Assembly (NCBI GenBank): GCA_965219085.1
Contig: OZ244720.1
Span: 707,684 to 771,683, forward strand
DNA length: 64,000 nt
From: Dehalococcoidia bacterium
Lineage (GTDB): Bacteria > Chloroflexota > Dehalococcoidia > UBA2979
Reading direction: 5' to 3'
Both the position numbers and the translations under genes were made by a program. Position 1 is the first letter of the stretch. The number at the start of each line of letters is the position of its first letter. The notes under the pieces are model-generated. The model saw only the letters and a list, made by a program, of their open reading frames with translations, searched no databases and had not been told where the DNA came from. Positions 13,995 through 37,088 of the stretch are shown piece by piece.

Positions 13995-14115
13995 GGTTCC
14001 GTTCCTTTCGTCCTGTAGGGTTTGGCGAGCCGCGCGATGCGGCTTGTGACAGAGCGAGGCCCCGTCCCACGCGGGTGGTGGGGCGGGGCCTCGTGGTGCC
14101 GCTCGGAGTGAGCGG

Positions 14116-15152
14116 TCAGGCGGCGATGTCGGTGATCTCGCCGATGTCGAGGTCGAGAGCGACGACGGTGGTGCGCAGCCGCTCCCGGTAGACCTCTTTC
14201 TCAGGCGTGGTTTCCACCAGCACCATCTCCTTTGATGTCTTCCCCTTGACGAGGATGCGACTGCCCTCGGCCTCGAGTTGCAGGTTGTCGAGGAAGCCGG
14301 CCGCCACCAGCATCGCGAGGTGGCCGCGGCGCAGCGGCATGAGTGGCGCGTGCGCCCGTCCTCGGCCGGCCAGAGCGCGTCGGTCACCGTCGCGCTGACC
14401 CAGAGCCCGGAGCGCCGCGACTCCGCAGCCGCGGCCACCGGGTCGATAGTGCGGGTGGCGAAGAGCACCTCGCCGCCGGCGGTCGCCCGGGCGTTGTAGA
14501 CCGGATAGCGCTGGCGGCTCAGCTCCTCGACGTTGCCCTCCATGCACTCCTGCAGCCGCACGGCGCTGTACTGGTCGTACTGCACCTCGGCCTTGCGCGT
14601 GCCCATGACGACGACCTGGTCGAAGGCCTCACGCTCCGGGTCCGGGAAGGCCCAGCAGCGCAGCCGCGCGTAGTGCGAGGCGAGGTAGTTGGCGGAGCCC
14701 GCCAGCCGCCGCCTCGGCACGACGAACACGAGCAGCCCGTGCTCGGCCAGGTAGCGCGTGCAGTGCCTGAGGAACGCGTGCTCGGTGCGCTTCTCCTCGC
14801 CGGCGTCGTCGTCGTACGGGGGATTCAGGTAGAGCAGCCCGAACGCCCCGTTGGCGATCGACGTCTGGAAGAGGTCCGTGCCGAGCACGTGGTCGAGGCG
14901 GTCCTGCGCCTCCTTCGCGCGCTCGGCGTGGAGCTCCACTCCGTAGGTCTCGACGGCGGAGCCGTCGGGACGGTCGATGCGGGCGGCGAGCTGCGCGAGC
15001 GCATCCCCGGCCCCGCAGCAGGGGTCGAGGATGCGCAGCGTGGTCTCGCCGCGGGCAGTGCTGCGAGCCTGCATCAGGCTCGCGATCATCTCGGTGACGC
15101 GTGGCGGCGTCGGGTAGAAACCGCCCTTCGCCTGGGCTGCCAGTCTCATCTC
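14116..15152 (-). CDS. N6-adenine DNA methyltransferase with an apparent frameshift (or genuine disruption) near 14330-14400
   Basis: ATG at 15152 is preceded by GGAAGGAGA. Motif I is ILDPCCGAGDAL and motif IV is LNPPYDDD. From about residue 270 the reading frame turns to Cys/Trp-rich nonsense, while a clean C-terminus (LVAAGFLDNLQLEAEGSRILVKGKTSKEMVLVETTPEKEVY...) continues in another frame to the stop at 14116. Confidence 0.6.
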
Positions 15153-15811
15153 GTGTCTCCTTCCCTGGTCAGGGTTGTCGTGGGCTCCGCGGGCTCCTCC
15201 CGCGGCAGCGTGAGCGTCCCGGCCGCCACGGCGTGCGAGAGGTCCTCGCGCAGCGCCTCGGCATTCGGGGTGCAGCGGTAGGCGGCGATGCCTGCCGACT
15301 GCAGCGGTACGACCTCGGCCTCCGCCAGTCCCCGGTGCCACAGCCAGTCCGCCCAGCTGCGGTGCAGGGGCAGCGGGCTGCGACGATCGAGGAAGCGGTG
15401 GTGCAGGGCGGGTGCCTCCTCCTCGCCCGGGGCGAGCAGCAGGAACGCATCCCGCTCGAAGGCGTACTCGGCCATGCGCGTGTAGACGAGGGCGTGCCAG
15501 CCTCCCGAGACGGGCAGGCGGCCGATCTTCGTCGTCCACGTGCCGAGCGTCTCGTAGGGGACCTCGCAGCGGTGGAATCCGCCCGAGAGCACCGCCCCGT
15601 CCGTGCCGGCGAGCAGGTGCGCGGTCTCCGGCGGGTGCTTGAGGAGGGCGGCCCAGATTGCCTTGAGGGCGCTCTGGGCTCCGACCATCGAGAGGAACCA
15701 GAGTCCCTCCGAGTCGGGGTCGCGCGCGAAGGCGTCGGCCGTGGCCGAGAAGCCGTTCGCGCTGATCGTGTAGAGGTCCTGGGTGTCCGGGGCGGCGTGC
15801 GCCACGAGCAT
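15146..15811 (-). CDS. Hypothetical protein of 221 aa
   Basis: ATG at 15811 is preceded by GGAAGGAGA. Its stop overlaps the methyltransferase start as ATGA. Confidence 0.6.
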   Translation of the reverse strand: MLVAHAAPDTQDLYTISANGFSATADAFARDPDSEGLWFLSMVGAQSALKAIWAALLKHPPETAHLLAGTDGAVLSGGFHRCEVPYETLGTWTTKIGRLPVSGGWHALVYTRMAEYAFERDAFLLLAPGEEEAPALHHRFLDRRSPLPLHRSWADWLWHRGLAEAEVVPLQSAGIAAYRCTPNAEALREDLSHAVAAGTLTLPREEPAEPTTTLTREGDTR

Positions 15812-17023: not shown

Positions 17024-17422
17024 CTAGAAGGGCTGGTCGTCCGCCGTCGCGGCGGCGGCCTCCCGGCTGCCGTTCCCGTTGCCGTTCGTGCGCCCGTTGC
17101 CGTTTGAGTCGAGGAAGATGACCTCCTGCGCGTGCACCTCGCTGCGGTGGCGGCGCTGGCCGTCCTGCGTCTCGTAGCTGTTCTGCGCGAGCGAGCCCGC
17201 GACGAAGATGCGGTTGCCCTTCTTCACGTACTCGGCGACGGCCTCGGCCTGCTTGCCCCAGCAGACGACGCTGTGCCAGTCGGCCTCGGTCTCGCCGTTC
17301 TGACGGCGGCGGTCGGTCGCCAGCCTGAGCTGGCAGATCGCCGTGCCGTTCTGGCTGTACTTGAGCTCGGGCTCCGTGCCCACGCGGCCCAGCAGCTCGA
17401 TGCGGTTGATCGTGCGTGACAT
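17024..17422 (-). CDS. ssb: Single-stranded DNA-binding protein, copy 2
   Basis: MSRTINRIELLGRVGTEPELKY...WH.VVCWGKQAEAV...EV.A.EVIFL forms an OB fold, with the acidic tail DDQPF. ATG at 17422 is preceded by AAGGAGA. Confidence 0.85.
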   Translation of the reverse strand: MSRTINRIELLGRVGTEPELKYSQNGTAICQLRLATDRRRQNGETEADWHSVVCWGKQAEAVAEYVKKGNRIFVAGSLAQNSYETQDGQRRHRSEVHAQEVIFLDSNGNGRTNGNGNGSREAAAATADDQPF

Positions 17423-17568
17423 GTTCAGTCTCCTTCTGGTGATGGTTGTCACCGTGGCGGTGCGGCCTCGCCGCACCTGGTTCGAAACGACGGCGGGGCC
17501 GCCCCCGTCAGGGAGCGGCCCCGTGTGCGCCCGCGCGCGGCGGGCGGCGTCTGTGTGCCGGTGGTTGG

Positions 17569-17961
17569 CTAGAAGGGCTGGTCGTCCGCGACCTCGGCGG
17601 CGGCCTGCTGGCCACCGTTGCCGTTGGAGCGCCCGGTGCCGTTCGAGTCGAGGAAGATGACCTCCTGCGCGTGGACCTCGGTGCGGTAGCGGCGCTGGCC
17701 GTCCTGCGTCTCGTAGCTGTTCTGGGCGAGCGAGCCCGCGACGAAGATGCGATTGCCCTTCTTCACGTACTCGGCCACGGCCTCGGCCTGCTTGCCCCAG
17801 CAGACGACGTTGTGCCAGTCGGCGTCGGTCTCGCCGTTCTGGCGGCGGCGGTCGGTCGCCAGCCTGAGCTGGCAGATCGCGGTGCCGTTCTGGCTGTACT
17901 TCAGCTCGGGGTCGGTCCCGACCCGGCCCAGCAGCTCGATGCGGTTGATCGTCCGTGACAT
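17569..17961 (-). CDS. ssb: Single-stranded DNA-binding protein, copy 1
   Basis: It is about 94% identical to copy 2. ATG at 17961 is preceded by AAGGAGAA, and the tail is DDQPF. Confidence 0.85.
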   Translation of the reverse strand: MSRTINRIELLGRVGTDPELKYSQNGTAICQLRLATDRRRQNGETDADWHNVVCWGKQAEAVAEYVKKGNRIFVAGSLAQNSYETQDGQRRYRTEVHAQEVIFLDSNGTGRSNGNGGQQAAAEVADDQPF

Positions 17962-18154
17962 TTCAGATTCTCCTTTTGGTGTTGGTTGTCACCGTGGTGG
18001 TGCGGCCTCGCCGCACCTGGGTTCGAAACGACGGCGGGGCCGCCCCGAAGGACGGCCCCGTGTGCGCTCCCGGAAGGGAGCGTCTCTGCAGCGCGTGTGC
18101 TCCAGGCACCTGCGATGGGCACCTCCTTCCGTTTGCTTGTTGGCCTTCAGGCGC

Positions 18155-18873
18155 TCAGGCGGCCTTCGGCGTCTCGGTCGCGCCGTCCTCCCGGAGCTTG
18201 CCGGCCGCGGCCTCCACCAGCGGGGTGAGGGCCGCGACCGGGAGCTCGTCGAGATCCTGGCCCGTGCGCTCGCGCACGGCGGACCGCACCTTCGCCTCGT
18301 CGAAGCCGCGGCAGTTGCCGAGGTCGACGAGGGTCTTGCGCAGCGACGGCGCGAGCTCGCCCGTCGCCCCGTCGCCGTAGAGGCTGTTCCCGAACTGGTC
18401 GCCGTAGCTCCGCAGCGCCCGCTTGAGCGCATCCGTGACCGCGCCCTTGTGCGCGGTCTCGTGGCCCTCGACTGTCTCGTCCGCGACGGCCTGGAAGCCG
18501 ACGTCGGTACGCGAGGGCGAGCCGGGAACGGTCACCCGCACGGTCGCGGTGTAGGCGCGCCAGGGCTTGGCCTCGCCCGTCCTCGGGTCGACGCTCTCGC
18601 CCTCCCGTAGTTCGACGGGAGCGACCAGCTCGTAGCCCCAGCCGCCGTGTCCGAAGACGCGGTTGGCCTGGTCGATGACGGTGTACCCCTCGATGTAGGC
18701 GTAGCTGCGGTTGCCGCGCCCCTTGCGCTGCGAGACGAGACCCTCGTCGAGGGGCTCGCCGAGCCGCTGCGTGACGGCGGGTGGGAGGCTGTCCCACACG
18801 AGGTCGCGCTCCGGGACGGGCTCGGGGTGGACGCCGTTGCGGCTGCCGTTGACGGTCGGTGTTGCGTTCGTCA
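18155..18873 (-). CDS. Rad52/Rad22-family single-strand annealing protein
   Basis: ATG at 18873 is preceded by AAGGAGAG. Motifs RSYAYIEGYTVIDQANRVFGHGGW and HKGAVTDALKRALRSYGDQFGN match the Rad52 N-terminal annealing domain. Confidence 0.7.
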
Positions 18874-19076
18874 TGTGTCGCTCTCCTTCGTGCTGTGCAT
18901 GGCTGGATGGACTGGTTGCGGGCCTCCCCAGGGGGAGACCCGTGCGCGGGGCGGAGCCCCGTCGGTCAGCGGTCATCGCGCCTCCTTCCGGTTGGCGGTT
19001 GGCCGGCGGGCACACGGAAGCGGCCCGGCCCCTTCGGGGAGCCGGGCAGTCAATGCCCGTCGGTGGGATGGGTTGG

Positions 19077-20123
19077 TTAGCGGGCGGCGCGAGCCGCCCG
19101 TTCGAGCAGGCGCAGGAAGACTTCCCGCCCCTGCGGCTGGGTCGCAAGTTCGGCCACGTCGGCGATGCCCTGGGGCAGGGCCACGACGGCGGCGCGGCGG
19201 CCAAGCAGGCTGGTGAGCCGCGCCGCCGCCTCGCGTCCGGCGCTGTCTGCATCGAAGGCGATGAAGACGTTGGGGCAGCCCCGCAGGGCGGCGGCCACCC
19301 GCTCCATGCCCTGCGTGCCGAGGGCGGCGCAGGCGGGCAATCCCCACTCGCTCAGGACGAGCCAGTCGAAGACGCCCTCGGTCACGACCGCCCACGGCGA
19401 GGCGTGACCGACCCGTCCCAGCCCGAGCACGGGCTTGGGGCCGGGCAGCGACTGGAAGCGGGGCGAGCGCTCCGGGTCGATGGCGCGTCCCGTGAGCCAG
19501 CGGACGCGACCGCCCGCGACCTCGGGGACGACCACCATGCCGCCGAAGCGCTCGCCGTGCTCCGTGAACAGCCCGCTCTCGCGGATCCGTCCGGAGGTGA
19601 AGCCCGCGGACGCAAGTGCTGTCCGCAGCCCGCGCCCCGGCGCATGGCCGAGGCCGAGCCGCATGGCCGTGTCGAGGTCGATGCCCCGCGAGGCCAGGTA
19701 CGCCCTCGCCTTGGCACTGCGGCGAAGCTGCCCCGCGTAGTACCTCGCCGCCGCCGTCGCGATCGCCGGGTCGGGCGGCGGAACCGCCGTCCGAGCAGCG
19801 GCCCGTCGAGAGGCTCCGAGGTGGGCAGGAGCGGTCGTGGGCGGAGAGGCGTCGAGCCGCCGGATCGCCTCCGGCAGGCTCACGCCCTCGGCGCGCTGGA
19901 TGAAGTCCAGCACGTCGCCGCCCTCGCCGCAGCCGAAGCAGTACCAGCGCTCGGTGTCGGCGTAGACGGTGAAGCTGCCCTCGGCCTCCTCGTGGAAGGG
20001 GCAGATGCCCTGCCGGACGCGGCCCCTGCCGTGCAGGCGAACGCCCGACGCCTCCACCACGTCGCCCAGCGGGTGACGCGCCTTCAGCGCCGCGATGTCG
20101 ACGCGCGCTTGCGCGGCGACCAT
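19077..20123 (-). CDS. DNA primase with a CHC2 zinc finger and a Toprim domain
   Basis: The zinc finger is CPFHEEAEGSFTV...WYCFGCGEGGDVLDF. The Toprim part is VVTEGVFDWL...FIAFDADSAG. The ATG overlaps the upstream stop as TGATG. Confidence 0.8.
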   Translation of the reverse strand: MVAAQARVDIAALKARHPLGDVVEASGVRLHGRGRVRQGICPFHEEAEGSFTVYADTERWYCFGCGEGGDVLDFIQRAEGVSLPEAIRRLDASPPTTAPAHLGASRRAAARTAVPPPDPAIATAAARYYAGQLRRSAKARAYLASRGIDLDTAMRLGLGHAPGRGLRTALASAGFTSGRIRESGLFTEHGERFGGMVVVPEVAGGRVRWLTGRAIDPERSPRFQSLPGPKPVLGLGRVGHASPWAVVTEGVFDWLVLSEWGLPACAALGTQGMERVAAALRGCPNVFIAFDADSAGREAAARLTSLLGRRAAVVALPQGIADVAELATQPQGREVFLRLLERAARAAR

Positions 20124-20587
20124 CACGAGCTGCCCTTCGCCAGGGGCCGCAGTCCCCGCAGGCTGCGCCGCGAGACGACCTTGCCGGAGTGCCAGCGCAT
20201 CCCGAGGACGGCCAGCACCTCCAGTGCCCCGCCGGGCTGCGGGGCGAGCACCGCCGCTCGCCCGGTGGCGGGGCTGTAGACGACCGCCTCGCGCCCCGCG
20301 AAGCGCCGCCGTGTGACATCGAGCCATTCGGCGTACGCCCAGCGCGCCTCCTGCTCCGTGACCCTCTTCAGGTCCGCGCCGGCGAGCACCGCGAGCGCCC
20401 CGTCGAGGTCGCCCTGCCGCCTCAACCGCCGCGCCTCGTGGACGCTGCGGGCGATGCTCGGTTCGGGTTCCGGCGACGCTCCGAGGAGCGCCTCGAAGAC
20501 CCGGTCCACCAGCTCTTCGAGGCTGCGGCCGGGGCGGTCTCCCGCCACCTCCGCAGCCGTGTTCAGCGTTCCCGTTGCCATCGTCAT
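20123..20587 (-). CDS. Hypothetical protein of about 153 aa
   Basis: ATG at 20587 is preceded by AGGAGGA. It is translationally coupled to the primase gene. Confidence 0.5.
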   Translation of the reverse strand: MTMATGTLNTAAEVAGDRPGRSLEELVDRVFEALLGASPEPEPSIARSVHEARRLRRQGDLDGALAVLAGADLKRVTEQEARWAYAEWLDVTRRRFAGREAVVYSPATGRAAVLAPQPGGALEVLAVLGMRWHSGKVVSRRSLRGLRPLAKGSS

Positions 20588-20711
20588 TTCGTGTCCTCCT
20601 GTGGTGTGGTTCCTGGTGCCGGGTCGTGCGCCCTCGCGGGCATGAAGAGGGCCGCCTCCAAAGAGGCGGCCCCATGGCTGGGTGGATACGGTGGGCCGGA
20701 GCCCAGGGTCG

Positions 20712-21215: not shown

Positions 21216-21790
21216 GTCTCGTGACCTCCTTCGTCACTGCTGCGTTGCTGGTGACCCGTGTCGGCATCCGTGGCTCGGGTAATGGCTGGGTTGTCGCTGC
21301 ACGCACTCCGCCCACGGTCGGATGCCGGACCGGGGAACGGGGTGGCTGGGCCGCGCTCGTGCGAAGCGGCCGGCCTGCGAATCACTCGCGGACGGGCTCG
21401 GTGCAGGGGCGGCGGACGTGAGGAACGGGCCGAGCGCAGGACGCACTCCGCCCAGAGACTCCGGGGCCGAGTGCAGGATGCAACTCGCCCGCGGTCTCCC
21501 GGCGTTCGAGGCAACGTCGGGGGAGCAGCGCTCGACCCTTCTGCTGCCTCCCGCTGCGGGAAGGCGGTTGTCCCTCACTGGATCGCCGTCGGGAGAGCAG
21601 GGCTCTATCCGTCGGGTCGGTCCGGGTCCGGGATGGACCCTCCAGGTTTCTACGGCAGGAAACGCTGGCAAAGCCGGAAACTGCTTGGCAGTGTCGCCTA
21701 GTCCCCGCACCGATGGAAGGGGGTTTGGGCCTCCCGCGCCGAATCACTTGCTGCGATGTAGCTGCGATGTAGCGGGGGCCGACCGGGGCC
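21216..21790 (-). promoter_or_regulatory. 575-bp leader and promoter region of the minus-strand establishment operon, with internal repeats
   Basis: It is noncoding. The 13-mer cgcactccgccca occurs twice (about 21300 and 21440). A tandem ctgcgatgtag x2 sits at 21751-21772. Confidence 0.4.
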
Positions 21791-22756
21791 CTACTTCCGC
21801 CACAACCCGAGGGTCAGCACGCGGCGGACGCAGCGCCAGAACAGCGCCCAGCGGCGCTCCGCCCGCGCGTCTGCCAGCGACTGCTCGCGCCGCCACATCT
21901 CCTTGTCGCGTTCGAGGCGGTCCCAGGGGTAGTAGGCCGGCAGCAGCGTCAGTGCGTGCTCCCGGATGAGGACGAGCTCCAGCTCCCGCATGCGCACCCA
22001 GGCGGTGGCGCGGGCCAGCCTGCTTCTGCCCTGGTCGATGTGCTCGACCCGCACCCGCCGCCACTCCACGATGAGCGGCATCGCCTCGCAGTAGACGAGC
22101 TCCTCGCCGGGCTCCGGCTCCAGCGTGACGATGTCAGGGTACGTTCGCCGGGGCGGGGTGCCCGCCGGTTCCCCGCCGACCGCCGGCCGTGTGTCCGGGT
22201 CGACCGGGGGCAAGGTTGCCAGCCGCCGTTCCCACTGCCTGAGTGTCTGCGCCTGCGCCTCCCGCAGATCCGCGAGGTCGCCGCGGACGGCGTCGAGCCC
22301 GCTTCGCACCGTCTCCTCCAGCGCTCCCGTGCGCTGCTCGAGGGCGCTGAGGCGCTCGCCTTGCCGCACCACCTCGGAGCGCTGATCGGCCAGCAGCCGC
22401 CGCTCCAGTGCCGAAGCCAGGCGCGGCACGAGCCGCCCCGAATTCATGCTCCGCCAGAGCGTCTTGCGGTCGACGCCCAGTTCCTCCGCCGCCTTCACGC
22501 GGCCCACCCGCTTCACGAGGTCGTGCAGCAGCGCCATCAGCCGCAGCTCGCGCACGCTCTCCAAGCTCGGCGTCTCGCCCGTTGCGTCCGGCGCTCCGCC
22601 GTTTGCCGCGCCTCCGTCCATGTTCCCGTTTGCCCCATTTCCCGGCTGTTCTGGAACATCGCCCCGCGCCCGGGGATGTGCCCGATGCCCCATATCCCGG
22701 CGCTCCTGCCCCATGGCGGTGGAATCCGCACTGGAACCGGATTGCTTGCTCGTCAC
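21791..22756 (-). CDS. HTH-containing putative regulator with a coiled-coil region; start codon uncertain
   Basis: The HTH is LMALLHDLVKRVGRVKAAEELGVDRKTLWRSM. Later it has heptad-like Leu/Arg/Glu-rich segments. The gene is divergent from the transfer genes. Confidence 0.5.
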   Translation of the reverse strand: MTSKQSGSSADSTAMGQERRDMGHRAHPRARGDVPEQPGNGANGNMDGGAANGGAPDATGETPSLESVRELRLMALLHDLVKRVGRVKAAEELGVDRKTLWRSMNSGRLVPRLASALERRLLADQRSEVVRQGERLSALEQRTGALEETVRSGLDAVRGDLADLREAQAQTLRQWERRLATLPPVDPDTRPAVGGEPAGTPPRRTYPDIVTLEPEPGEELVYCEAMPLIVEWRRVRVEHIDQGRSRLARATAWVRMRELELVLIREHALTLLPAYYPWDRLERDKEMWRREQSLADARAERRWALFWRCVRRVLTLGLWRK

Positions 22757-22872
22757 GTCCTGTAGGGGCGCTTTCCCCTTGTCCTGCCTGGGTTCTGACC
22801 GCTGGGCCGTTCCGTTACCAACGTCGCTTCTCCTTACACGGCTACCACACCACGACCGGCCCCGTGCCGGCC

Positions 22873-22916
22873 ATGCCTCATAAGGGAGGTCACGCGTGAC
22901 CTCCCTTATGAGGCAT
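22873..22916. promoter_or_regulatory. Perfect 44-bp palindrome (22-bp arms) in the divergent intergenic region
   Basis: atgcctcataagggaggtcacg|cgtgacctcccttatgaggcat is an exact reverse complement. It lies between the HTH gene start (22756) and the first transfer gene (22989). Confidence 0.9.
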
Positions 22917-22988
22917 TACCTCGCGCCGGCTGAGCCGCGACACTCCTCACCCCTGCAAGAACGCTCGTTCTGTAACAAGGAGGCGTCC

Positions 22989-23606
22989 ATGAGGCGGCAA
23001 CCAGGAACAACAGCCGGTAGGGCGAGGCGGCTGAGGACGCTGGCGGCGGCGCTGCTGCTGGCGGCGCTCGCCACCATCCCCTCGAGCGGCGTCGCCCTCG
23101 CCCAGGAGCCGCCCGCGGAGGCCATCGTGCTCGTCAACGAGACCGCCGAGGATCTCGTCGAGCGCAAGGACGACGGACGCTTCATCGCACGCCCCGTCTT
23201 CGACCGCGAGGTCCCGCTCCTCTACTACGGCGTGCGCGACGGCGACACGGGCGATTGGCTCACCGTCGTCTTCCGGGTGCGCGACGACGGCGAGGAGCGG
23301 CGCGACGGCCGCGAGTACTCCTTCGAGTACCCCTTCGAGAACGGCCAGCCCGAACTCGACCCGGAGCGTCCCTACCTGCTGGTGATGCTCGCGGGCGAGC
23401 TGGCGGAGTCGCCGCAGCCCTTCTACGCCGTCATCCCGCCCCACCAGCCCGGCGGTCTCTGGAACAGGGTTCTCGGCGCGCTCGACCCCGAGCGCTGGGG
23501 CAAGGCCGTCGCCCGCTGGGTGATCGAGGGCGCGCACGGGACGCTCTGCGGCGTCGTGGAGCGCGCCTCAGGCGACGACACCGATGTCTGCGAGGTCGCC
23601 CCGTGA
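22989..23606 (+). CDS. Secreted hypothetical protein with a signal peptide (RRLRTLAAALLLAALA)
   Basis: ATG at 22989 is preceded by AAGGAGG. It has a hydrophobic N-terminus, and its stop overlaps the next start as GTGA. Confidence 0.6.
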   Translation: MRRQPGTTAGRARRLRTLAAALLLAALATIPSSGVALAQEPPAEAIVLVNETAEDLVERKDDGRFIARPVFDREVPLLYYGVRDGDTGDWLTVVFRVRDDGEERRDGREYSFEYPFENGQPELDPERPYLLVMLAGELAESPQPFYAVIPPHQPGGLWNRVLGALDPERWGKAVARWVIEGAHGTLCGVVERASGDDTDVCEVAP

Positions 23607-26789: not shown

Positions 26790-27103
26790 GGCGGCTCACG
26801 ACCGCCCTGCTCTTCGCCGGGGTCGCGCTGGTCACCACCGGCGCGGCCCCGGCCGAGGAGCTGGCAATGCTCAACGCCTTCGACGAGGCGCTGACGGCGA
26901 TGGCCTACGCCGCCGCCGGGGTCTGCGTCTTCGCCATCGTCTGGGCGGGCTTCCTGCTCATGGCCGACGGCGCCGACGAGCGCGGCGGCGGACGCGCGAA
27001 GAGCGCTGTCTTCCTCGCGGTGTTTGGGCTCGCCCTCGTGCTCTCGGCCAAGGGCGTGGCCGCGCTGCTGCGCCTGGGCGTCGTCCCGATCCCGATCCCC
27101 TAG
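26777..27103 (+). CDS. Small membrane protein of 108 aa
   Basis: GTG at 26777 overlaps the upstream stop. It has two hydrophobic helices. Confidence 0.45.
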   Translation: MGLVRRLTTALLFAGVALVTTGAAPAEELAMLNAFDEALTAMAYAAAGVCVFAIVWAGFLLMADGADERGGGRAKSAVFLAVFGLALVLSAKGVAALLRLGVVPIPIP

Positions 27104-27122
27104 CACCAAGGAGCACACCCCC

Positions 27123-29426
27123 ATGAGACCACTACTCGAACTCGCGAAGCGCGCGGCGGCGATCCTGCCCGGCGGGGCCGCCGCCCAACGGATCGAACCC
27201 GAGGCGGAGACCCCGGTGCCGAAGCCCCCGCCGGGGCTGCCGCTCGCCTTCATGCTCTCGCACCTGGAGGAGGACGGCCCGGTACGCCTCGACGGCGTGA
27301 AGCTCGGCGTCTGCGAGGTGCTGGGCCTCGAGCTGGACGAGCCGAAGCTGGGGGCCTTCGCGGGCGCGCTCAACGCCTGCGACTTCCCGTTGCAGCTGCT
27401 CGTGCGCCAGCACCCACCCGGGCTCGGGAAGCTGCGGGAGGATCTCGCGGAGTCACAGCCCGAGGACCTGCCCCCGCAGACGGAGGCCGCCGCGGACTCG
27501 CTGCGGCGACTGCTGGGCGAGCTGGAGCGCCGCGACGGCATCCTCGACCGCCGCTTCTACGCTGTCTGCGAGCACGAGCGGATAGGCGAGCTGCGGGGCC
27601 TGCTGGCGCGGGCCGGACTCTCCGTCCACCCGCTTGTGGGCCGCCAGTTGCGCATGCTGCTGCTCGCCTCGGCCCTCGGCGGCTCGCCGCGCGAGATCGA
27701 CGAAGACACGCCCACCGAGGTCACGGTCAACCGCCGCGACATCCGCGTCGGGGACCGCCTCGTGCGCTCGCTGCATCTCGGGAAGTGGCCGCGCTCCCTC
27801 TCGCCCGGCTTCCTCCAGAACCTGATGGCGACCGGCGCGCCGATGGACCTCTCCCTCCACCTCGGGCCGATCCCCGCCGCGCAGGCGGCGCGCACGCTGG
27901 AGTGGCAGAAGGTCCGCTTCGAGTCGGCGCAGAGCCTCTCCTTCAAGCGCGGGCGCTCGATGTCCTCGGAGGCGGAGATCGCCCTCGAGGACGTGATGCG
28001 GCTGCGCGACGAGGTGCAGCGCGGGCGCGAACGCCTCTTCCACGCCTCCCTCTCGGTCACGCTCCACGCCGATGACGAGGAGTCCCTGAAGGAGCTGACC
28101 CAGCGGGCCAAGGCCCACTTCGCGGCCTCCCTGGGGAAGCTGGACGCCCTTCCCTTCCGCCAGCGCGAGGGCCTGCTCGCGACGCTGCCGCTGGCGCTCA
28201 ACGCCGTCGCCGTCTGGCGCACGCTCGACACCTCGTCGCTGGCCCGTCTCTACCCCTTCTCCCCGCCCGACCTCGACACCCGTGGCGGCACGCTCTACGG
28301 CATCGACATGCGGGCGTCGTCGCCCGTCGTCTACGACCCCTGGGACGGCACGCACCTCAATGCCAACACCGCCGTGCTCGCGCGCTCGGGAAGCGGGAAA
28401 TCGTTCGCGACCAAGCTGGGCGTGCTGCGCGGGCTCTGCCGGGGCGTCACCGCCTACGTGATCGACCCCGAGGGCGAGTACGCGGACATGGCCCGCGCCG
28501 CGGGCGGACGCGTGCTCTCGCCGGGCGTCGCGGGCGAGGGCATGAACCCCTTCGTCATCGACTCGGGCGATCCCGAGGAGCTGCTGCTGCGCATCGGCAG
28601 CCTCAGGCGGCTGATCGAGGTGATGATCGGGGAGTCGCTCGGCGCCGAGCGGCGAGCCGCCCTCGACCACGCCCTCGCCGCCTACTACGCGCAGCCGCGC
28701 GAACGCACCGGCTTCCGCGACTTCTACGCGTTCCTCAAGGGCGACGAAGCCGATGGCGACCCCGGCCTTGCCAGGCTGCTGCGGCCCTTCGCCACGGGCA
28801 GCCTCCGCCACCTGCTCACCGACGAGGGCGACGACCTGCTCAAGAGCGAAGCGCTGGTGACGGTCTTCGACCTGCGGCTGCTGGAGCCGGAGCTGCGGCC
28901 GGCCGCAGCGATGGTCTGCACCGAGACGGTCTGGGCCGCCGCCGCGCGCGACCCGAAGCCGCGATTGCTGGTCGTCGACGAGGTCTGGTCGATCATGCAG
29001 CACCCCGAGGGCGCGGCCTTCATGGTCTCGCTGGCGAAGCGGGCGCGGAAGCACCGGCTGGGACTGCAGTTCATTACCCAGGACGTGCAGGACCTGCTCT
29101 CCGAGGACCCCTCGCGCGCGATCACCGGCCACTCGGGTCGCGCGCTGCTTCAGAACGCCGCCTTCAAGCTCCTCCTCCAGCAGGACGCCGCCGCCATCTC
29201 GACCGTCGGCGACGCCTTCGACCTCCCCCAGGACCTGCAGCGCTGGCTGCTGTCGTGTCCGCGCGGCGACGGGCTCCTCCTCGCCCGCGGCAACCGCTTC
29301 CCGATCCGCATCGAGGCGACGCCCGAGGAGGCGGAGCTGATCGAGTGGCGGCCCGGCTCGCACCGGCAGGGCAGCGCGACCCCAGCGCCGCAGGAGCCGG
29401 CCGTTCCCGAACCGGGCGACCGATAG
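27123..29426 (+). CDS. VirB4/TrbE-like conjugative ATPase
   Basis: ATG at 27123 is preceded by AAGGAG. Walker A is VLARSGSGKSF and Walker B is RLLVVDEVW. The protein is 767 aa. Confidence 0.8.
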   Translation: MRPLLELAKRAAAILPGGAAAQRIEPEAETPVPKPPPGLPLAFMLSHLEEDGPVRLDGVKLGVCEVLGLELDEPKLGAFAGALNACDFPLQLLVRQHPPGLGKLREDLAESQPEDLPPQTEAAADSLRRLLGELERRDGILDRRFYAVCEHERIGELRGLLARAGLSVHPLVGRQLRMLLLASALGGSPREIDEDTPTEVTVNRRDIRVGDRLVRSLHLGKWPRSLSPGFLQNLMATGAPMDLSLHLGPIPAAQAARTLEWQKVRFESAQSLSFKRGRSMSSEAEIALEDVMRLRDEVQRGRERLFHASLSVTLHADDEESLKELTQRAKAHFAASLGKLDALPFRQREGLLATLPLALNAVAVWRTLDTSSLARLYPFSPPDLDTRGGTLYGIDMRASSPVVYDPWDGTHLNANTAVLARSGSGKSFATKLGVLRGLCRGVTAYVIDPEGEYADMARAAGGRVLSPGVAGEGMNPFVIDSGDPEELLLRIGSLRRLIEVMIGESLGAERRAALDHALAAYYAQPRERTGFRDFYAFLKGDEADGDPGLARLLRPFATGSLRHLLTDEGDDLLKSEALVTVFDLRLLEPELRPAAAMVCTETVWAAAARDPKPRLLVVDEVWSIMQHPEGAAFMVSLAKRARKHRLGLQFITQDVQDLLSEDPSRAITGHSGRALLQNAAFKLLLQQDAAAISTVGDAFDLPQDLQRWLLSCPRGDGLLLARGNRFPIRIEATPEEAELIEWRPGSHRQGSATPAPQEPAVPEPGDR

Positions 29427-29509: not shown

Positions 29510-32089
29510 ATGAGACTCAACCCCTTCCGCAGAGCGACGCCCAGGCCGCCTGTCCTGCTGGCGGTGACGCCGCCGCGCTCGGGCGAGCGCACGCTGCTCG
29601 GCGTCGAGAACCTGCTCGCCTCGATCGCCGTCCCTGAACCCTTTGCCCTCGAGCTGGCCGGCGACGAGGACGGCGTCACGCTCATGGCGCGTTGCCTCGA
29701 CGAGCAGGTCGTGCGCGGCCAGATCGCCACCCACTACCCGCAGGCCCGCATCCAAGCGCTGGAGCCGGAACAGGATCCCCTGCGCCTCGCCGAGGGCGAG
29801 CAAGCCTGGGGCACGACCGTGCGCGCGAGCGGCCCCGAGTATGTCTCCCTGCGCGTCTTCCGCGACGACGACCTGCTCGACGCCGGCTCCGACCCGCTCC
29901 TCTCCCTGCTTGGCGCGCTCTCGTCGCTGCGGGAGGGCGAGCGCGTCGTCGCCCGCCTGCTGCTGCGCTCGCTCGGTCCCGACTGGTCCCAGGCCCACCA
30001 GCTCAAGGCCCACCAGCGGCCCGTGCAGGAGCCGCATGACAGCGCCTACACGAGCCAGGTCCGCCAGCACCGCAACGACGGCGTGGCGATGGCCGTCCTC
30101 GGCGCTGGCGCCATCGCCGCCATCAAGGGCTACCAGTGGTGGCAGGCTGGCGAGACCTGGAAGGCGGTCGCCCTCGGCGGCGGCATCGCCCTCACCCTCG
30201 CGGCCGCTGGCTGGGCCTGGGCGCGCTTCCAGCGCGCCCGCAACCGCATCCACGACCCGCTCCTGATCAAGGAGAAGGTCTCGCGCATCGCCTTCGACGC
30301 CGAAATCCAGATCGTCGCGATCCTGCCGGCGAAGAGCGCGAAGGACGGGAGGCGACGGGCGCGGGAGCTGCTCGAGCCGGTGGCGGCCGCCTACCGCCAC
30401 TACGACCACCCCGCGGGCGCCCGCCTGCGGGCCGGGAAGGTGCGGGCCGTGGCGCCCGACCCCGCCCTGCTGCACCCTTCCGGCCCCCGGCTGCTCGGCG
30501 GGCGCAGCGTGCTCGGCGTGCGCGAGGCGGCGGCCCTCTGGCATCCGCCCGGCGCGCGCGACGAGACGCCGCTCGTGGAGCGCTCCGGCGCCAGGGTGCT
30601 GCTGCCCTCCGCCCGGGGCGTCAGGGGCGGCGCGCACGTGGGCGACACCACCGCGGGCAATCCCCGGCCCGTGCACTTCCCCGACGACCTGCTGCGCCGC
30701 CATCACTTCTACGTGGCGCGTACGCGCATGGGCAAGTCGACGCTCATGCACCACCTCGTCGTCCACAAGCTCCGCGAGAAGGCGGCGGGCCGCGACGGTG
30801 ACGCGATCGTCGTCGTCGACCCACACGCCGACCTCGTGGGCGCCCTCCTCGGGCAGGTGCCCGAGTCGCTCGCCGGCCAGGTGCGCCTCGTCGACCTCGC
30901 CGCCCCGGGCGGCTACCCGGGCATCAACCTGCTCGACACGCGGGTTTTCGCCGACCGCGACCGCACCGCCGACTCGGTCGTGCGCGTGGCGAGGGGCCTC
31001 TGGGAGCAGTGGGGCCCGCGCATGCAGTCGATCCTCGAGCAGACCGTGAAGACCCTGCACGAGGCCAACGCCCACCCCGCCACCGCCGCCGACGAGCAGC
31101 ACACGATCCTCGACGGCCTGCCGCTGCTCTCCGACGACGGCTTCCGCGGACACGTCCTGGAGCGGGTCTCCGACCCCTTCCTGCTCGACTGGTGGGCGCG
31201 CGACTTCGGGGGCTGGCGACGCGAGTACCGCGCCGAAGCGCTCGCGCCCGTGCAGACGCGCCTCTCCTACTACGCCTCCTCGAAGCGGGCGCGCGCCATT
31301 CTCGGTCAGCCCCGCTCCACCATCGACCTCAGGCGCACGATCCTCGACGGCGGCATCCTCTTCGTCTCCACCGCGCAGGGCACGGCAGGGCGCGACGTCG
31401 CCGCCCTCGTGGGCGCGTCGATCCTCAACCTCGTCGACGCCGTCATCCGCGAGCAGGGTGACCTGCCGCCGGAACGGCGACGCGGCGCGCTCGTCGTCGT
31501 GGACGAGATGCAGTCGATGCCGGGCGTCGACTACGAGTCGATGCTCTCCGAGCTGGGCAAGTTCGGGGCCTCGTTCGTGCTCGCCACGCAGAGCCTCGAC
31601 AAGCTCGAGGACCTCTCACGCACGATGCGCAACACCCTGCTCGCCAACGTCGGCTGCCTCGCCGTCTTCCAGGTGGCCGGCTCCGACGCGCGCGAGCTCG
31701 TCTGGGAGCTGGACCGCGACCGCATCTCCGAGGAGGACATCGTCTCCCTGCCCGTGCACCACTGCTACGTGCGCGCCACCGTGGGAACGGAGCGCATGCC
31801 GGCCTTCTCGATGCAGGTCCTCAAGCCGGAGGAGGGCGACGCGGATGTCGCCGCGGGCATCCGCGCCGAGGCGTCCTCCTACCTCCTCACCGAGGAGGAG
31901 ATCGCCGCCGGCCAGGCGGAGGGCCGCAGGCGCGTGGAGGAGTACCGCAAGGGCGTCGAGGCGCTCCGCGCCGGCGAGGCTCCCCCGGCAGCGCAGGGCG
32001 ACGGCGCGTCGGTGGACCCCGTGCGCGGGAAGCCGCGCAGCAAGCACTTCCAGCCGCCCGCCGGGGGCTCCGGGGAGGATGAGGCGTGA
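29510..32089 (+). CDS. Type IV coupling protein (VirD4/TraD-like)
   Basis: ATG at 29510. It has an N-terminal TM pair, Walker A YVARTRMGKST and Walker B ALVVVDEMQS. The protein is 859 aa. Confidence 0.75.
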   Translation: MRLNPFRRATPRPPVLLAVTPPRSGERTLLGVENLLASIAVPEPFALELAGDEDGVTLMARCLDEQVVRGQIATHYPQARIQALEPEQDPLRLAEGEQAWGTTVRASGPEYVSLRVFRDDDLLDAGSDPLLSLLGALSSLREGERVVARLLLRSLGPDWSQAHQLKAHQRPVQEPHDSAYTSQVRQHRNDGVAMAVLGAGAIAAIKGYQWWQAGETWKAVALGGGIALTLAAAGWAWARFQRARNRIHDPLLIKEKVSRIAFDAEIQIVAILPAKSAKDGRRRARELLEPVAAAYRHYDHPAGARLRAGKVRAVAPDPALLHPSGPRLLGGRSVLGVREAAALWHPPGARDETPLVERSGARVLLPSARGVRGGAHVGDTTAGNPRPVHFPDDLLRRHHFYVARTRMGKSTLMHHLVVHKLREKAAGRDGDAIVVVDPHADLVGALLGQVPESLAGQVRLVDLAAPGGYPGINLLDTRVFADRDRTADSVVRVARGLWEQWGPRMQSILEQTVKTLHEANAHPATAADEQHTILDGLPLLSDDGFRGHVLERVSDPFLLDWWARDFGGWRREYRAEALAPVQTRLSYYASSKRARAILGQPRSTIDLRRTILDGGILFVSTAQGTAGRDVAALVGASILNLVDAVIREQGDLPPERRRGALVVVDEMQSMPGVDYESMLSELGKFGASFVLATQSLDKLEDLSRTMRNTLLANVGCLAVFQVAGSDARELVWELDRDRISEEDIVSLPVHHCYVRATVGTERMPAFSMQVLKPEEGDADVAAGIRAEASSYLLTEEEIAAGQAEGRRRVEEYRKGVEALRAGEAPPAAQGDGASVDPVRGKPRSKHFQPPAGGSGEDEA

Positions 32090-33759
32090 GGCCCGAGCGC
32101 GACCTGCCGCGGCTGCTCGCGGCCATGCCTTTCCTCGACCGGCTGGAGCTGGTCGCCGTCTCCGGCTGGTCTCGGGGCGCGGTCTACGGGAGCATCCGGG
32201 CGCTGGAGGAGGCGGGGCTCGTGGCCTCCCTCCCCCACGCCTCGGAGCTCGTTGCCCCGACGCGCCGCTACGCCCTCACTGCGGCCGGCCTGCGCCGCCT
32301 CGCCGCCGAGGAGCGCGTGGGCATGCACGAGTTACTGCGCTCGCGGCCCCTCTCGGCGCATGGGCGGCGCATCCTGCTGGAGCGGCTCGACGCCGTCGCC
32401 GTCATCTACCGGCTCGCCTCCGAGATCGCCAACCTCCACTACCCGATCCGCTTCCGCTGGTACCGGGCGATGCCGATGGACGCCGCCATCGCCCTCCCGG
32501 ACGGCCGCACCGTCGCCGTCGTGCGACAGGGGCATACCGCCGATCGCACAGCCTACGCCAAGCGGCTCTGGCGGCTGCGCGAGGGGCCGCGGCCGGGCGC
32601 GTTCCTGCTGCTCGCACCCGATGAGGTGCGCCTCCGGCACACGCGCCGGCTGATGACGGGAGCGCCCGCGCCCGCCTTCCTCGCCCTGGAGCGCGATGCG
32701 ATCTCGTCAGGGCCGGGCGCCCGCATCTGGCGCACGGCGTCCGGCTCGCCCCTCCTTGGGCTCGGCGAGGTCCTGTCCCACGTCGCGGCGCGCGGCGCGT
32801 GGCCCGAGGAACAACCGCCCGCTCTGGCCTCGTTCCCGCGCGACCTGCCTGCCGATCCCCCGGGGTCCCCTGCCGACTGGATGCTCCCCGCGCTGCTCAA
32901 GCCCACCGAGAAGCGCGTCCTCGACTTGCTCTGCGACTGGCCGTGGATCACGCCCGCGCACCTCGGCGTCCTGCTCGGGCTCGGACGGTCGCGGCTCTCC
33001 GCGATCGTGCAGCGGTTGGAGGCGATGGGCCTGCTGGTCGACTCCGCTGTCGCCGGCCGCCGCCGGCTCGGCCTCAGCGACCGCGGGCTGGCGGTGCTCT
33101 CCCGGCGTGACCGCGCGTCTGTGGGCGACGCTAGAAAGCGCTGGAGCATCGCACCCCTCGATCCCGGCGCCGCCGGCTGGCGCAACGTCTCCGGCCGGCG
33201 CAGCCGCCAGCTCCTGCGCAACATCGAGCACACCGCGTCCGTGCACGCCTTCATCTCGGCGCTGGCCGAGCAGGCGCGGGCTTCCAGCTGGGAGGTCGGC
33301 GAGCTCGACCCTCCGCGCCGCGCCTCGCGGTACTTCCCCTACGACGACCGGCTGCACTCCATCCAGCCCGATGCCTTTGGGATGCTGCACCGCGGCGACG
33401 AGATTTGGCCCTTCTTCCTCGAGTGGGAGCGGCGCGCCGTGCACCCGGCCACGATGGCGGCCCGCCTCGCCCCCTACCTGCGCTACTACGCCTCCCACCG
33501 GCCCACCGACGACCACGGCGCCCGGCCGGCTGTCCTCGTCGTCTTCGACGACGAGCTCGCGGCGAACCACTTCCTGCGCGTGGCGCAGGGGGAGCTAGAG
33601 CGCGCGAGGGTCGCGGTGCCGCTGCGAGTCTCGTTCGAGCGGCTCCTGCGGGCAGAGGGGCCGCTGGGACGTGCCTGGCGCGTTCCGGGCGCGCCTCATC
33701 AACAGGCGGGGCCGCTCTCCGGCCACGCCGTCGCCTCCAGTGGGGATTCCGGGCGCTGA
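32086..33759 (+). CDS. Replication-relaxation family protein (putative relaxase or mobilisation protein with a winged-helix N-terminus)
   Basis: GTG at 32086 overlaps the coupling-protein stop (GTGA). The N-terminal winged-helix-like segment is LDRLELVAVSGWSRGAVYGSIRALEEAGLV. The gene sits directly after the coupling-protein gene. Confidence 0.5.
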   Translation: MRPERDLPRLLAAMPFLDRLELVAVSGWSRGAVYGSIRALEEAGLVASLPHASELVAPTRRYALTAAGLRRLAAEERVGMHELLRSRPLSAHGRRILLERLDAVAVIYRLASEIANLHYPIRFRWYRAMPMDAAIALPDGRTVAVVRQGHTADRTAYAKRLWRLREGPRPGAFLLLAPDEVRLRHTRRLMTGAPAPAFLALERDAISSGPGARIWRTASGSPLLGLGEVLSHVAARGAWPEEQPPALASFPRDLPADPPGSPADWMLPALLKPTEKRVLDLLCDWPWITPAHLGVLLGLGRSRLSAIVQRLEAMGLLVDSAVAGRRRLGLSDRGLAVLSRRDRASVGDARKRWSIAPLDPGAAGWRNVSGRRSRQLLRNIEHTASVHAFISALAEQARASSWEVGELDPPRRASRYFPYDDRLHSIQPDAFGMLHRGDEIWPFFLEWERRAVHPATMAARLAPYLRYYASHRPTDDHGARPAVLVVFDDELAANHFLRVAQGELERARVAVPLRVSFERLLRAEGPLGRAWRVPGAPHQQAGPLSGHAVASSGDSGR

Positions 33760-37040: not shown

Positions 37041-37088
37041 CGCGGCAGGGCGGTGCCAGTCCGGCCGCGAGCCAGGGAGCACGAACCG

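Follow-up and report, generated by a model that had tools for sequence, protein, structure and literature searches.

A conserved 44-bp palindrome in a Dehalococcoidia conjugative element as a candidate relaxase-recognition repeat at an origin of transfer

Introduction

The origins of transfer (oriT) of the plasmids RP4 (traJ/traK) and R388 (trwA) lie in divergent promoter regions, and the relaxosome proteins of these systems also repress the flanking promoters. For the MOBC plasmid pAD1, Francia and Clewell are said to have reported in 2002 that oriT2 has a large inverted repeat containing the nick, and a further report on this system is attributed to Francia et al. in 2013. The repeat is reportedly about 140 bp long and imperfect, and specificity is said to map to short direct repeats that adjoin it rather than to the repeat itself. 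MOBC is, to our knowledge, the least understood relaxase superfamily, and no conjugative element of Chloroflexota is known to us, including from the literature that we searched, to have been characterized experimentally. Here, we analyzed a 64,000-nucleotide (nt) stretch of a Dehalococcoidia genome (contig OZ244720.1, positions 707,684 to 771,683; the window), which carries an integrative conjugative element of a Chloroflexota (Dehalococcoidia-type) genome with a type IV secretion system, a coupling protein, a MOBC relaxase and a large serine recombinase. Between two divergent operons of this element lies a long palindrome that an earlier, sequence-only reading had proposed to be a master operator, a cruciform-forming site or an origin- or nick-related site. 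We tentatively favor the view, to which we give somewhat less than an even chance, that the palindrome is the relaxase-recognition inverted repeat at the oriT core, placed so as to gate both promoters too.

The window relaxase belongs to PF13814, a family equated with the relaxase superfamily MOBC and noted to occur together with VirD4 coupling proteins and serine integrases (PMC5357655). Class 8 of the streptococcal integrative and mobilizable elements (IMEs) combines a VirD4 coupling protein, a MOBC relaxase and a serine integrase (PMC5357655). The kind of feature described here, an oriT repeat or control-region dyad of a conjugative element, is known, while this instance is new and lies in an uncharacterized element family.

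Results

The exact 44-bp palindrome of the sequence-only reading was borne out by a direct check of the sequence. Positions 22873-22916 consist of two 22-nt arms, ATGCCTCATAAGGGAGGTCACG and CGTGACCTCCCTTATGAGGCAT, that meet without a spacer, and the central dinucleotide, CG, is itself palindromic. The arm is unique within the window even when up to 3 mismatches are allowed, and the second-longest perfect palindrome of the window has arms of 9 nt. The longest palindrome arm seen in shuffled versions of the window (n = 200) was 12 nt, and the number of palindromes with 22-nt arms expected by chance is 1.1e-7. The palindrome forms a local A+T-rich island in surrounding DNA of 71% G+C. A very stable fold was predicted for 161 nt that include it (-76.8 kcal/mol, z = -5.5), and its arms hold a Shine-Dalgarno (SD)-like AAGGGAGG and an anti-SD-like CCTCCCTT.

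An alignment-based scan of reference genomes yielded 80 related loci (given L numbers below), nearly all of them in metagenome-assembled genomes of Dehalococcoidia/Tepidiformaceae and often several per genome. The helix-turn-helix (HTH) protein encoded beside the palindrome has more than 350 homologues. The relatives are integrative conjugative or mobilizable elements of Dehalococcoidia/Tepidiformaceae and show two architectures, namely, full elements ordered as in the window and reduced elements (about 18) in which the HTH gene and the site stand back to back with the coupling-protein and relaxase genes. Reduced copies share only 5.6 to 6 kb, made up of the relaxase and coupling-protein genes, the intergenic region, the HTH gene and part of a convergent gene. 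The site region is the sole sizeable noncoding stretch of this shared module, so any oriT of the module should lie there.

Far from being lost or degenerate in all relatives, as the sequence-only reading had asked to be checked, the palindrome keeps its position and dyad symmetry in dozens of related elements, and because of this conservation we regard it as clearly functional. Most loci have a palindrome or hairpin-type repeat at an equal distance upstream of the HTH gene, with perfect arms of at least 10 nt in 27 of the 80 loci and perfect palindromes of at least 44 bp in 8; the dyad centers range from zero spacer to 12-nt loops. We distinguished five site classes. Class A, to which the window belongs, reads ATGCCyyATAAGGGG...CCCCTTATrrGGCAT, class B reads CCTGcAAGGGGG...CCCCCTTgCAGG, and class C is longer and reads TGAGGGGGG...CCCCCCTCA. 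Class D consists of arrays of GGTGTCAC/GTGACACC with three-residue GGG/CCC runs, and class E is built of short AGTCCCC-N4-GGGGACT dyads, two or three per site. The outer AAGGGG...CCCCTT motifs span 26 bp throughout, whether or not the center is paired.

In an ungapped alignment of 25 class A and class B sites, 16 of the 22 mirror positions were found to have changed on both sides, and 91.5% of the cells were complementary, compared to 40 to 58% with a slid partner. Dyad symmetry ended sharply at position 22 and was usually kept at the very center. The dyad mismatches (34 G-T, 19 A-C and 37 other) showed no clear wobble signature or strand asymmetry. In L028, a perfect palindrome of 78 bp was observed (5630-5707): to one end of the 44-mer, an inverted copy of the flank at its other end, GAAAGACGGGGGCCG, has been added, and this copy replaces the normal flank on the transfer-operon side. 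The inverted flank duplication makes the cruciform suggested by the sequence-only reading, or a hairpin, plausible.

Some further loci deserve mention. L007, L009 and L016 are reduced elements of one genome, with two tandem palindrome units in L007 and L016 and a partial duplicate in L009; among these co-resident copies, breakpoints lie to the left as well as to the right of the site, and the HTH reading heads are conserved. L097 resembles an L052-type site minus the palindrome core, of which GTCAAGGCTTGAC remains. L010 and L040 form a class A/E pair about 73 kb apart on one contig, so that site classes coexist in one chromosome.

The class of the site appears to follow the winged-helix segment of the MOBC relaxase and not the reading head of the HTH protein. 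Residues 1-250 of the window relaxase group with the clade of class E sites (75 to 84%). Residues 251-350 are 47 to 59% identical to those of the class E clade and closest (68 to 70%) to class C relaxases, whose sites have the same G-run...C-run design as class A. Across the loci, class E sites go together with a GVSxRR..Q...PL-type helix (typically GVSGxRV[S/A]QLVLPL) and a deletion of 3 to 4 residues, as seen in L081, L082, L085, L133, L135/L136 and L138. The G-run...C-run classes A to C, as well as class D, go together with (K/R/G)RSRLSxxxxRL-type helices in about 20 elements. This match of helix and site separates E from non-E (about 7 versus about 20 elements, phylogenetically clustered) and provides no code at a fine scale. 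We had predicted in advance that an E-type N terminus joined to a window-type helix would come with a class A palindrome. Fittingly, this combination was found in L131 (E-type N terminus in the window and L131, 74 to 84%), whose site reads TAATGCCTCATAGGGGAGGGCACG and CGTGCCCCCCCTTATGCGGCGTGG about its center and whose block 1 (see below) is identical to that of the window. L133 has an E-type helix and class E dyads. Class E site and E-type helix are likewise paired in L138, and a G-run palindrome and a non-E helix are paired in L137. L001 (= L135) combines a window-type HTH head with a class E site and an E-family relaxase helix with the deletion, this helix being 58 to 65% identical to E types and 51 to 56% identical to others. 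No winged helix more than 71% identical to that of the window was found in the database, and the best match, L084, has a class C site rather than a class A site. Among the options raised by the sequence-only reading, an origin- or nick-related site fits best as far as sequence can tell, given that the site class appears to follow the relaxase winged helix and that the minimal modules have no other sizeable noncoding region.

The comparison of close relatives points in the same direction as regards the unit of exchange. Window DNA is 88 to 92% identical to that of L064, L040 and L061 over the secretion genes up to position 22979 and again left of 21736, and the intergenic region and the first approximately 160 HTH codons are without similarity. 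In comparison with L064 and L081, DNA identity is 90% for the secretion genes and 80% for the coupling-protein and relaxase genes, and no similarity is seen for the site and the N-terminal half of the HTH protein. The co-resident elements L137 and L138 (OZ253575.1) encode an identical T3 protein and are 97.5% identical in the secretion genes and 73% in coupling protein and relaxase, with unrelated HTH genes and sites, which indicates either that the secretion block has recently undergone gene conversion or that the DNA-processing set has been exchanged. Thus, site, HTH protein, coupling protein and relaxase seem to constitute an exchangeable DNA-processing set that flanks a conserved secretion block. 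This set is contiguous in the reduced elements, and the secretion genes between the exchanged parts are 90 to 97.5% identical.

The divergent gene order given by the sequence-only reading was confirmed, but the starts of both the transfer gene and the HTH gene had to be corrected. The first transfer gene, T1, starts at ATG 22989 behind the ribosome-binding site (RBS) AAGGAGG (22977-22983), and a GTG inside the palindrome is not the start. For the HTH gene, more than one start is conceivable. ATG 22621 is implied by the public annotation (P0001, 276 amino acids [aa]), the longest open reading frame (ORF) runs from GTG 22756, and several homologues start at a TTG equivalent to window position 22821, directly after a conserved SD-like AAGGAGA. 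TTG 22821 is probably the true start. The two divergent start codons, ATG 22989 and TTG 22821, are separated by 167 bp, with the palindrome midway. In close homologues, the 22-codon stretch that follows this TTG is in frame with the HTH protein (forms of 298 to 357 aa); homologues of 342 to 349 aa cover 98 to 100% of the 321-aa HTH ORF, and an in-frame HTH start after block 1 is present in L004, L010, L020, L036, L040, L061, L064, L044, L073 and others. The separate 22-codon ORF of the window is either a translationally coupled leader or the result of a frameshift, real or due to an assembly error.

Two conserved blocks flank the palindrome. Block 1, with the family consensus GTGrTGTsATnnnCGTGTACAGrGA, starts 15 to 19 nt from the palindrome on the HTH side. 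About 60 of 81 loci have it on the same strand and at a constant distance, covering every site class and both architectures, and it is better conserved than the palindrome. Its 5' half, TGn-TGTnAT, is -10-like and lies 23 nt from the palindrome edge in the window and 22 to 23 nt in relatives. Its 3' half is the putative SD of the HTH gene and ends in AGGGA/AAGGAGA, with the start codon 7 to 18 nt further. The TGTACA core is invariant and reappears as TGTRCA repeats in the most divergent group (L076 and L067). This core may be the operator of the HTH protein itself, combined with -10 and SD signals. Readings of block 1 as a sigma-54 or extracytoplasmic function (ECF) promoter or as a structured RNA were unconvincing by eye.

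Block 2, on the transfer side, is a -10-like hexamer, GACACT (CASACT in relatives), and its opposite strand, tcGAGTSTGrgg, is conserved in all site classes and both architectures. A weak -35-like TTACCT (22916-22921) lies 17 nt upstream of GACACT and overlaps the last base of the palindrome. We take blocks 1 and 2 to be two putative back-to-back promoters with weak -35 elements. Since a sigma-70 promoter scan of 22600-23100 found no consensus promoter, this assignment is drawn from the conserved blocks alone. The palindrome lies 22 and 23 nt from the two -10-like hexamers, and the dyad would therefore be placed symmetrically just upstream of both promoters.

Between block 2 and the T1 RBS, we observed a further dyad, AGAACG-CT-CGTTCT. 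Its GAAC-N4-GTTC pattern, present as a sole copy in the window, has a form that we take to be that of the Gram-positive/Dehalococcoides LexA (SOS) box. It is found at the corresponding place in L038, L047, L085, L101, L131 and L133 and also between divergent XRE-type genes in L082, L085, L133 and L135; these XRE-type genes adjoin genes for ImmA-like peptidases (L082, L085 and L133) and LexA_DNA_bind proteins (L085 and L133). The motif is not family-wide (3 of 62 loci of the first set, about 25-fold over background). Its placement suggests SOS-type control of transfer in this lineage. Since a separate candidate operator exists for the transfer operon, the palindrome is not needed to explain transcriptional control.

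That site and HTH N-terminal half are replaced together between otherwise 88 to 97% identical elements first suggested a cognate HTH/operator cassette. In this view, the adjacent HTH/coiled-coil protein would bind the palindrome as a dimer or tetramer and thereby co-regulate both operons from one operator or activator site, which would have no DNA-processing role; we consider this possible but rather unlikely. The dyad does abut the putative promoters beside a candidate regulator gene, centered in the 167-bp divergent region and almost equidistant from the conserved hexamers. The HTH protein is predicted to have an N-terminal three-helix HTH, a single helix of 70 residues, suited to dimerization, and a helical C-terminal domain. 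Moreover, the outer motifs keep their span regardless of pairing at the center, classes D and E are made up of short dyads in tandem, as is typical of operators, and the HTH-proximal arm is still present at loci that have lost the transfer operon. However, head types and site classes do not change together. Heads with RKTLWR occur with classes A, C and E and those with YRTVSR with classes C and D, and L001 has a head near-identical to that of the window beside a class E site near-identical to that of L064, whose head differs. The Mantel correlation with site similarity was 0.55 for the reading head, not above the 0.63 obtained for the HTH C-terminal domain or the 0.61 obtained for T1. The TGTACA core of block 1 is a better target candidate for this rather conserved head, and no family assignment points to a repressor role, since searches of NCBIfam and Pfam and a PDB fold search gave no family and only a weak cII/XRE-like HTH. 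The operator idea of the sequence-only reading thus retains a functional, conserved dyad and loses the adjacent protein as its supported reader.

The coordinates of the features are collected in Table 1. The element is integrated within a 3.3-Mb contig. On the plus strand to the right of the palindrome, T1 is followed by more secretion genes, including one for a pilin-like protein, and in full elements the relaxase gene is located about 9 to 10 kb from the palindrome. A PDB sequence search with the relaxase gave marginal MarR matches only, and searches of plasmid collections with the control-region DNA and the relaxase protein gave no match. On the minus strand to the left, the operon comprises genes for the HTH protein, a protein without assignment, a DnaG-like primase, a Rad52-like protein and two single-stranded DNA-binding proteins (SSBs), and the same side encodes a 1,275-aa DUF6094 methyltransferase/helicase fusion. 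This gene set of primase, Rad52, SSBs and DUF6094 recalls plasmid leading or establishment regions.

Table 1. Features of the palindrome region and of the surrounding element
Feature	Position in window	Strand	Remarks
HTH-headed operon genes	17024-20675 and 11712-15539	-	Primase, Rad52-like annealase, two SSB paralogues, DUF6094 fusion
HTH/long coiled-coil/helical C-terminal-domain protein	21791..22756	-	Candidate regulator or relaxosome accessory protein; N-terminal half hypervariable
22-codon ORF	22753..22821	-	TTG 22821 start; TGA overlaps GTG 22756 (GTGA)
Block 1	22829..22853	-	GTGGTGTGGTAGCCGTGTAAGGAGA
Palindrome	22873..22916	none	Class A dyad; putative oriT inverted repeat and shared upstream element of both promoters
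Block 2	22939..22944	+	-10-like hexamer, 22 nt from palindrome edge
LexA-type operator candidate	22958..22971	none	GAAC-N4-GTTC dyad
RBS and T1, first transfer-operon gene	22977..23606	+	205 aa, N terminus signal-peptide-like
VirB4-like ATPase	27024-29426	+
VirD4-type coupling protein	29510..32089	+	Within the putative exchangeable DNA-processing set
MOBC-type relaxase (PF13814 Replic_Relax)	32086..33759	+	PadR-like and MarR-like winged-helix regions
Relaxase residues 251-350	32836..33135	+	Hypervariable MarR-like winged helix; recognition helix GLGRSRLSAIVQRL; appears to co-vary with site class
Large serine recombinase	37053-38702	+

Several repeats and accessory genes were also observed. Within the low-complexity N-terminal extension of the HTH ORF (22631-22717), ATGGGGCA occurs three times in the HTH sense with spacings of 30 to 55 nt, and GGGGCA repeats akin to it are present in L001, L002 and L131. 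Two 50-nt direct repeats, 72% identical and 72 nt apart (21515-21636), lie within the 575-bp gap between the HTH gene and the next gene; this gap is about 90% conserved in comparison with L064 and L040. An ORF of 3,730 aa at 35-11227 has 12 cadherin-like and 5 fibronectin type III stretches and may encode a surface adhesin for mating. Giant repeat proteins adjoin the transfer genes also in L081 (5,759 aa), L134, L138 and L139, the last of which is a decayed copy. The cargo beside the relaxase gene varies and includes defense-type genes (L131 11777-17479 and L084 11670-13339) with GAP1-N1, DO-GTPase, GASH and GAAD domains, AbiTii and DUF3800.

Discussion

The palindrome lies in an element with both a relaxase and a coupling protein, and it is a noncoding inverted repeat conserved in related elements, as would be looked for in an oriT. 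In the mechanism that we propose, all of whose main parts (binder, nick, promoters and regulatory effect) are putative, contact with the dyad would be made by the variable MarR-like winged helix of the relaxase, acting as a dimer on double-stranded DNA or on a hairpin, whether extruded or single-stranded. The relaxase would then nick one strand within or beside the repeat, and the coupling protein would pass the nicked strand on for secretion by the type IV system. Since the dyad adjoins the -35 positions of both putative promoters, a relaxosome bound there would at the same time gate expression of the transfer operon and the HTH/primase/Rad52/SSB operon.

A number of observations weigh against an oriT repeat read by the relaxase. 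The correlation of relaxase and site comes mainly from a single split, E versus non-E, plus two or three events of recombination, among elements that are phylogenetically clustered. The winged helices of the class A relaxases (window, L101, L102 and L117) do not group together, the class-B-like palindrome of L137 comes with a helix unrelated to that of class B, and the inner palindrome of L009 differs from that of L007 and L016 at winged-helix identities of 92 to 93%. Symmetric spacing to both -10-like hexamers is the expectation for a shared transcriptional operator, classes D and E resemble arrays of short operator-type dyads, and the HTH-proximal arm is retained in loci or a clade without an adjacent transfer operon. 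A perfect, zero-spacer palindrome of 44 bp is longer and more perfect than typical oriT repeats, its symmetry runs through the central 4 nt, which cannot pair in a hairpin, and no long palindrome is present in the most divergent relatives (L067, L071, L076 and L078). A transcriptional role, to which promoter geometry, the operator-like classes D and E and the retained arm would all belong, is compatible with the oriT reading.

The site could also act through structure only: a cruciform or a hairpin of single-stranded DNA would need no sequence-specific reader and could be a single-strand origin or priming site for synthesis of the complementary strand after transfer, an Frpo-type single-strand promoter for the primase/SSB/Rad52 operon or a supercoil-sensing cruciform between the divergent promoters. 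We consider this improbable. The inner arms vary freely with compensatory changes that no protein segment matches at a fine scale, loops of up to 12 nt are tolerated at the center, and the predicted fold is very stable. In addition, L097 has lost its core, as unstable palindromes do, the 78-bp extension of L028 looks like a footprint of hairpin-templated synthesis, and the neighboring operon, with its primase, Rad52-like annealase and two SSBs, is like plasmid leading regions. On the other hand, the mismatches lack a clear wobble signature, symmetry is kept at central positions that cannot pair, and the outer arms and the sharp 44-bp boundary are conserved within classes, favoring sequence recognition. 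As for an Frpo-type promoter, the stem contains no -35/-10 pair, and its 22 bp could not accommodate a complete promoter; the strand that would be the first to be transferred has the sense of the downstream genes and could not serve as their template.

The perfect symmetry of the center together with the L028 extension points to hairpin-templated copying at this site, which could be the mutational bias known for quasi-palindromes. A variant of the relaxase scheme would go further: bound symmetrically as a dimer, the MOBC relaxase would place its nick at the dyad center or close to it, so that the arms become terminal inverted repeats of the transferred strand. The strand ends could then pair in the recipient as a panhandle or hairpin, aiding recircularization or self-priming, and each transfer would re-copy one arm from the other. 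Such re-copying would explain why symmetry is perfect, including the unpairable center, despite divergence of the arms, and would account for the 78 bp of L028. We regard this variant as quite improbable. If true, it would be a transfer-origin mechanism unlike the hairpin-plus-offset-nick design of HUH relaxases.

It seems very improbable to us that the palindrome acts in RNA, as a 5' leader hairpin of either or both of the divergent transcripts that serves as a stabilizer, processing site or attenuator. Such a hairpin would be very stable as RNA, and the SD-like and anti-SD-like sequences in its arms would suit such a role, but both -10-like hexamers are located beyond the palindrome edges and point away from it, which would leave the palindrome untranscribed. 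There is also no T-run and no clear strand asymmetry in the mismatches. An Rfam search returned only sub-threshold miRNA-hairpin look-alikes, and a known RNA family was rejected for want of a match at the gathering score. An intrinsic (bidirectional) terminator was rejected as well, as 22600-23100 contains no terminator-like site or T-run and the flanking genes diverge.

Hardly credible, finally, is a breakage and rejoining site other than oriT, i.e., a telomere-resolution site, attP or a resolution site, even though the element encodes a large serine recombinase and perfect zero-spacer palindromes of 40 to 80 bp are a hallmark of telomere-resolution sites, which this palindrome fits in length and perfection. 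A protelomerase target was rejected because the element is integrated and no protelomerase or tyrosine recombinase is encoded near the site or in the minimal modules, which hold only relaxase, coupling-protein and HTH genes. Serine-integrase att sites need the directionality provided by a nonpalindromic central dinucleotide, and the palindromic CG center would remove it; attP was rejected on this ground and because the dyad is intact, perfect and internal, 14 kb from the recombinase gene, whereas an attP would be an imperfect dyad of about 50 bp, split into attL and attR at either end of an integrated element.

Should the palindrome be the oriT core, a fragment of about 200 bp (approximately 22820-22990) plus the three-gene module could serve for mobilizable vectors for Dehalococcoidia-type bacteria. 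Site classes A to E, paired with winged-helix types, would make a natural specificity series for target choice by a restriction-enzyme-like relaxase. The elements themselves consist of a conserved secretion block flanked by an exchangeable DNA-processing set, and several variants can share one genome.

With pAD1 oriT2/TraX of Enterococcus, the locus presented here shares a relaxase of the MOBC superfamily (PF13814), a VirD4/TraG-like coupling protein, a large inverted repeat in a short noncoding region by the coupling-protein and relaxase genes, and a specificity that differs among close relatives. The differences from pAD1 are that the repeat, a 44-mer, is perfect and is the part that varies, that it is flanked by back-to-back putative promoters and, in full elements, precedes the relaxase gene by about 9 kb, and that it belongs to another phylum, Chloroflexota, and is without sequence similarity to any plasmid record searched. 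With RP4 and R388 it has in common a cis site between divergent transfer-related operons, where an inverted repeat is, or here would be, read by DNA-processing proteins and a small DNA-binding protein encoded nearby could double as accessory factor and autoregulator. Those plasmids, however, have HUH relaxases (MOBP and MOBF), repeats of about 10 to 19 bp and a defined nick about 8 nt away, whereas the window has a restriction-endonuclease-like MOBC relaxase and a repeat that is much longer and perfect. The phage and integrative-element immunity cassettes (lambda-like, SetR/ImmR) are similar in that a DNA-binding domain and the adjacent divergent control region are exchangeable and differ between co-resident elements; here, in contrast, site and reading head do not go together for the adjacent protein, and the winged helix of the distant relaxase appears to vary with the site. 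The streptococcal IMEs of class 8 have the same trio of protein families in a compact mobilization module but belong to another phylum, and no oriT is described and no HTH/coiled-coil gene or palindrome reported for them (PMC5357655).

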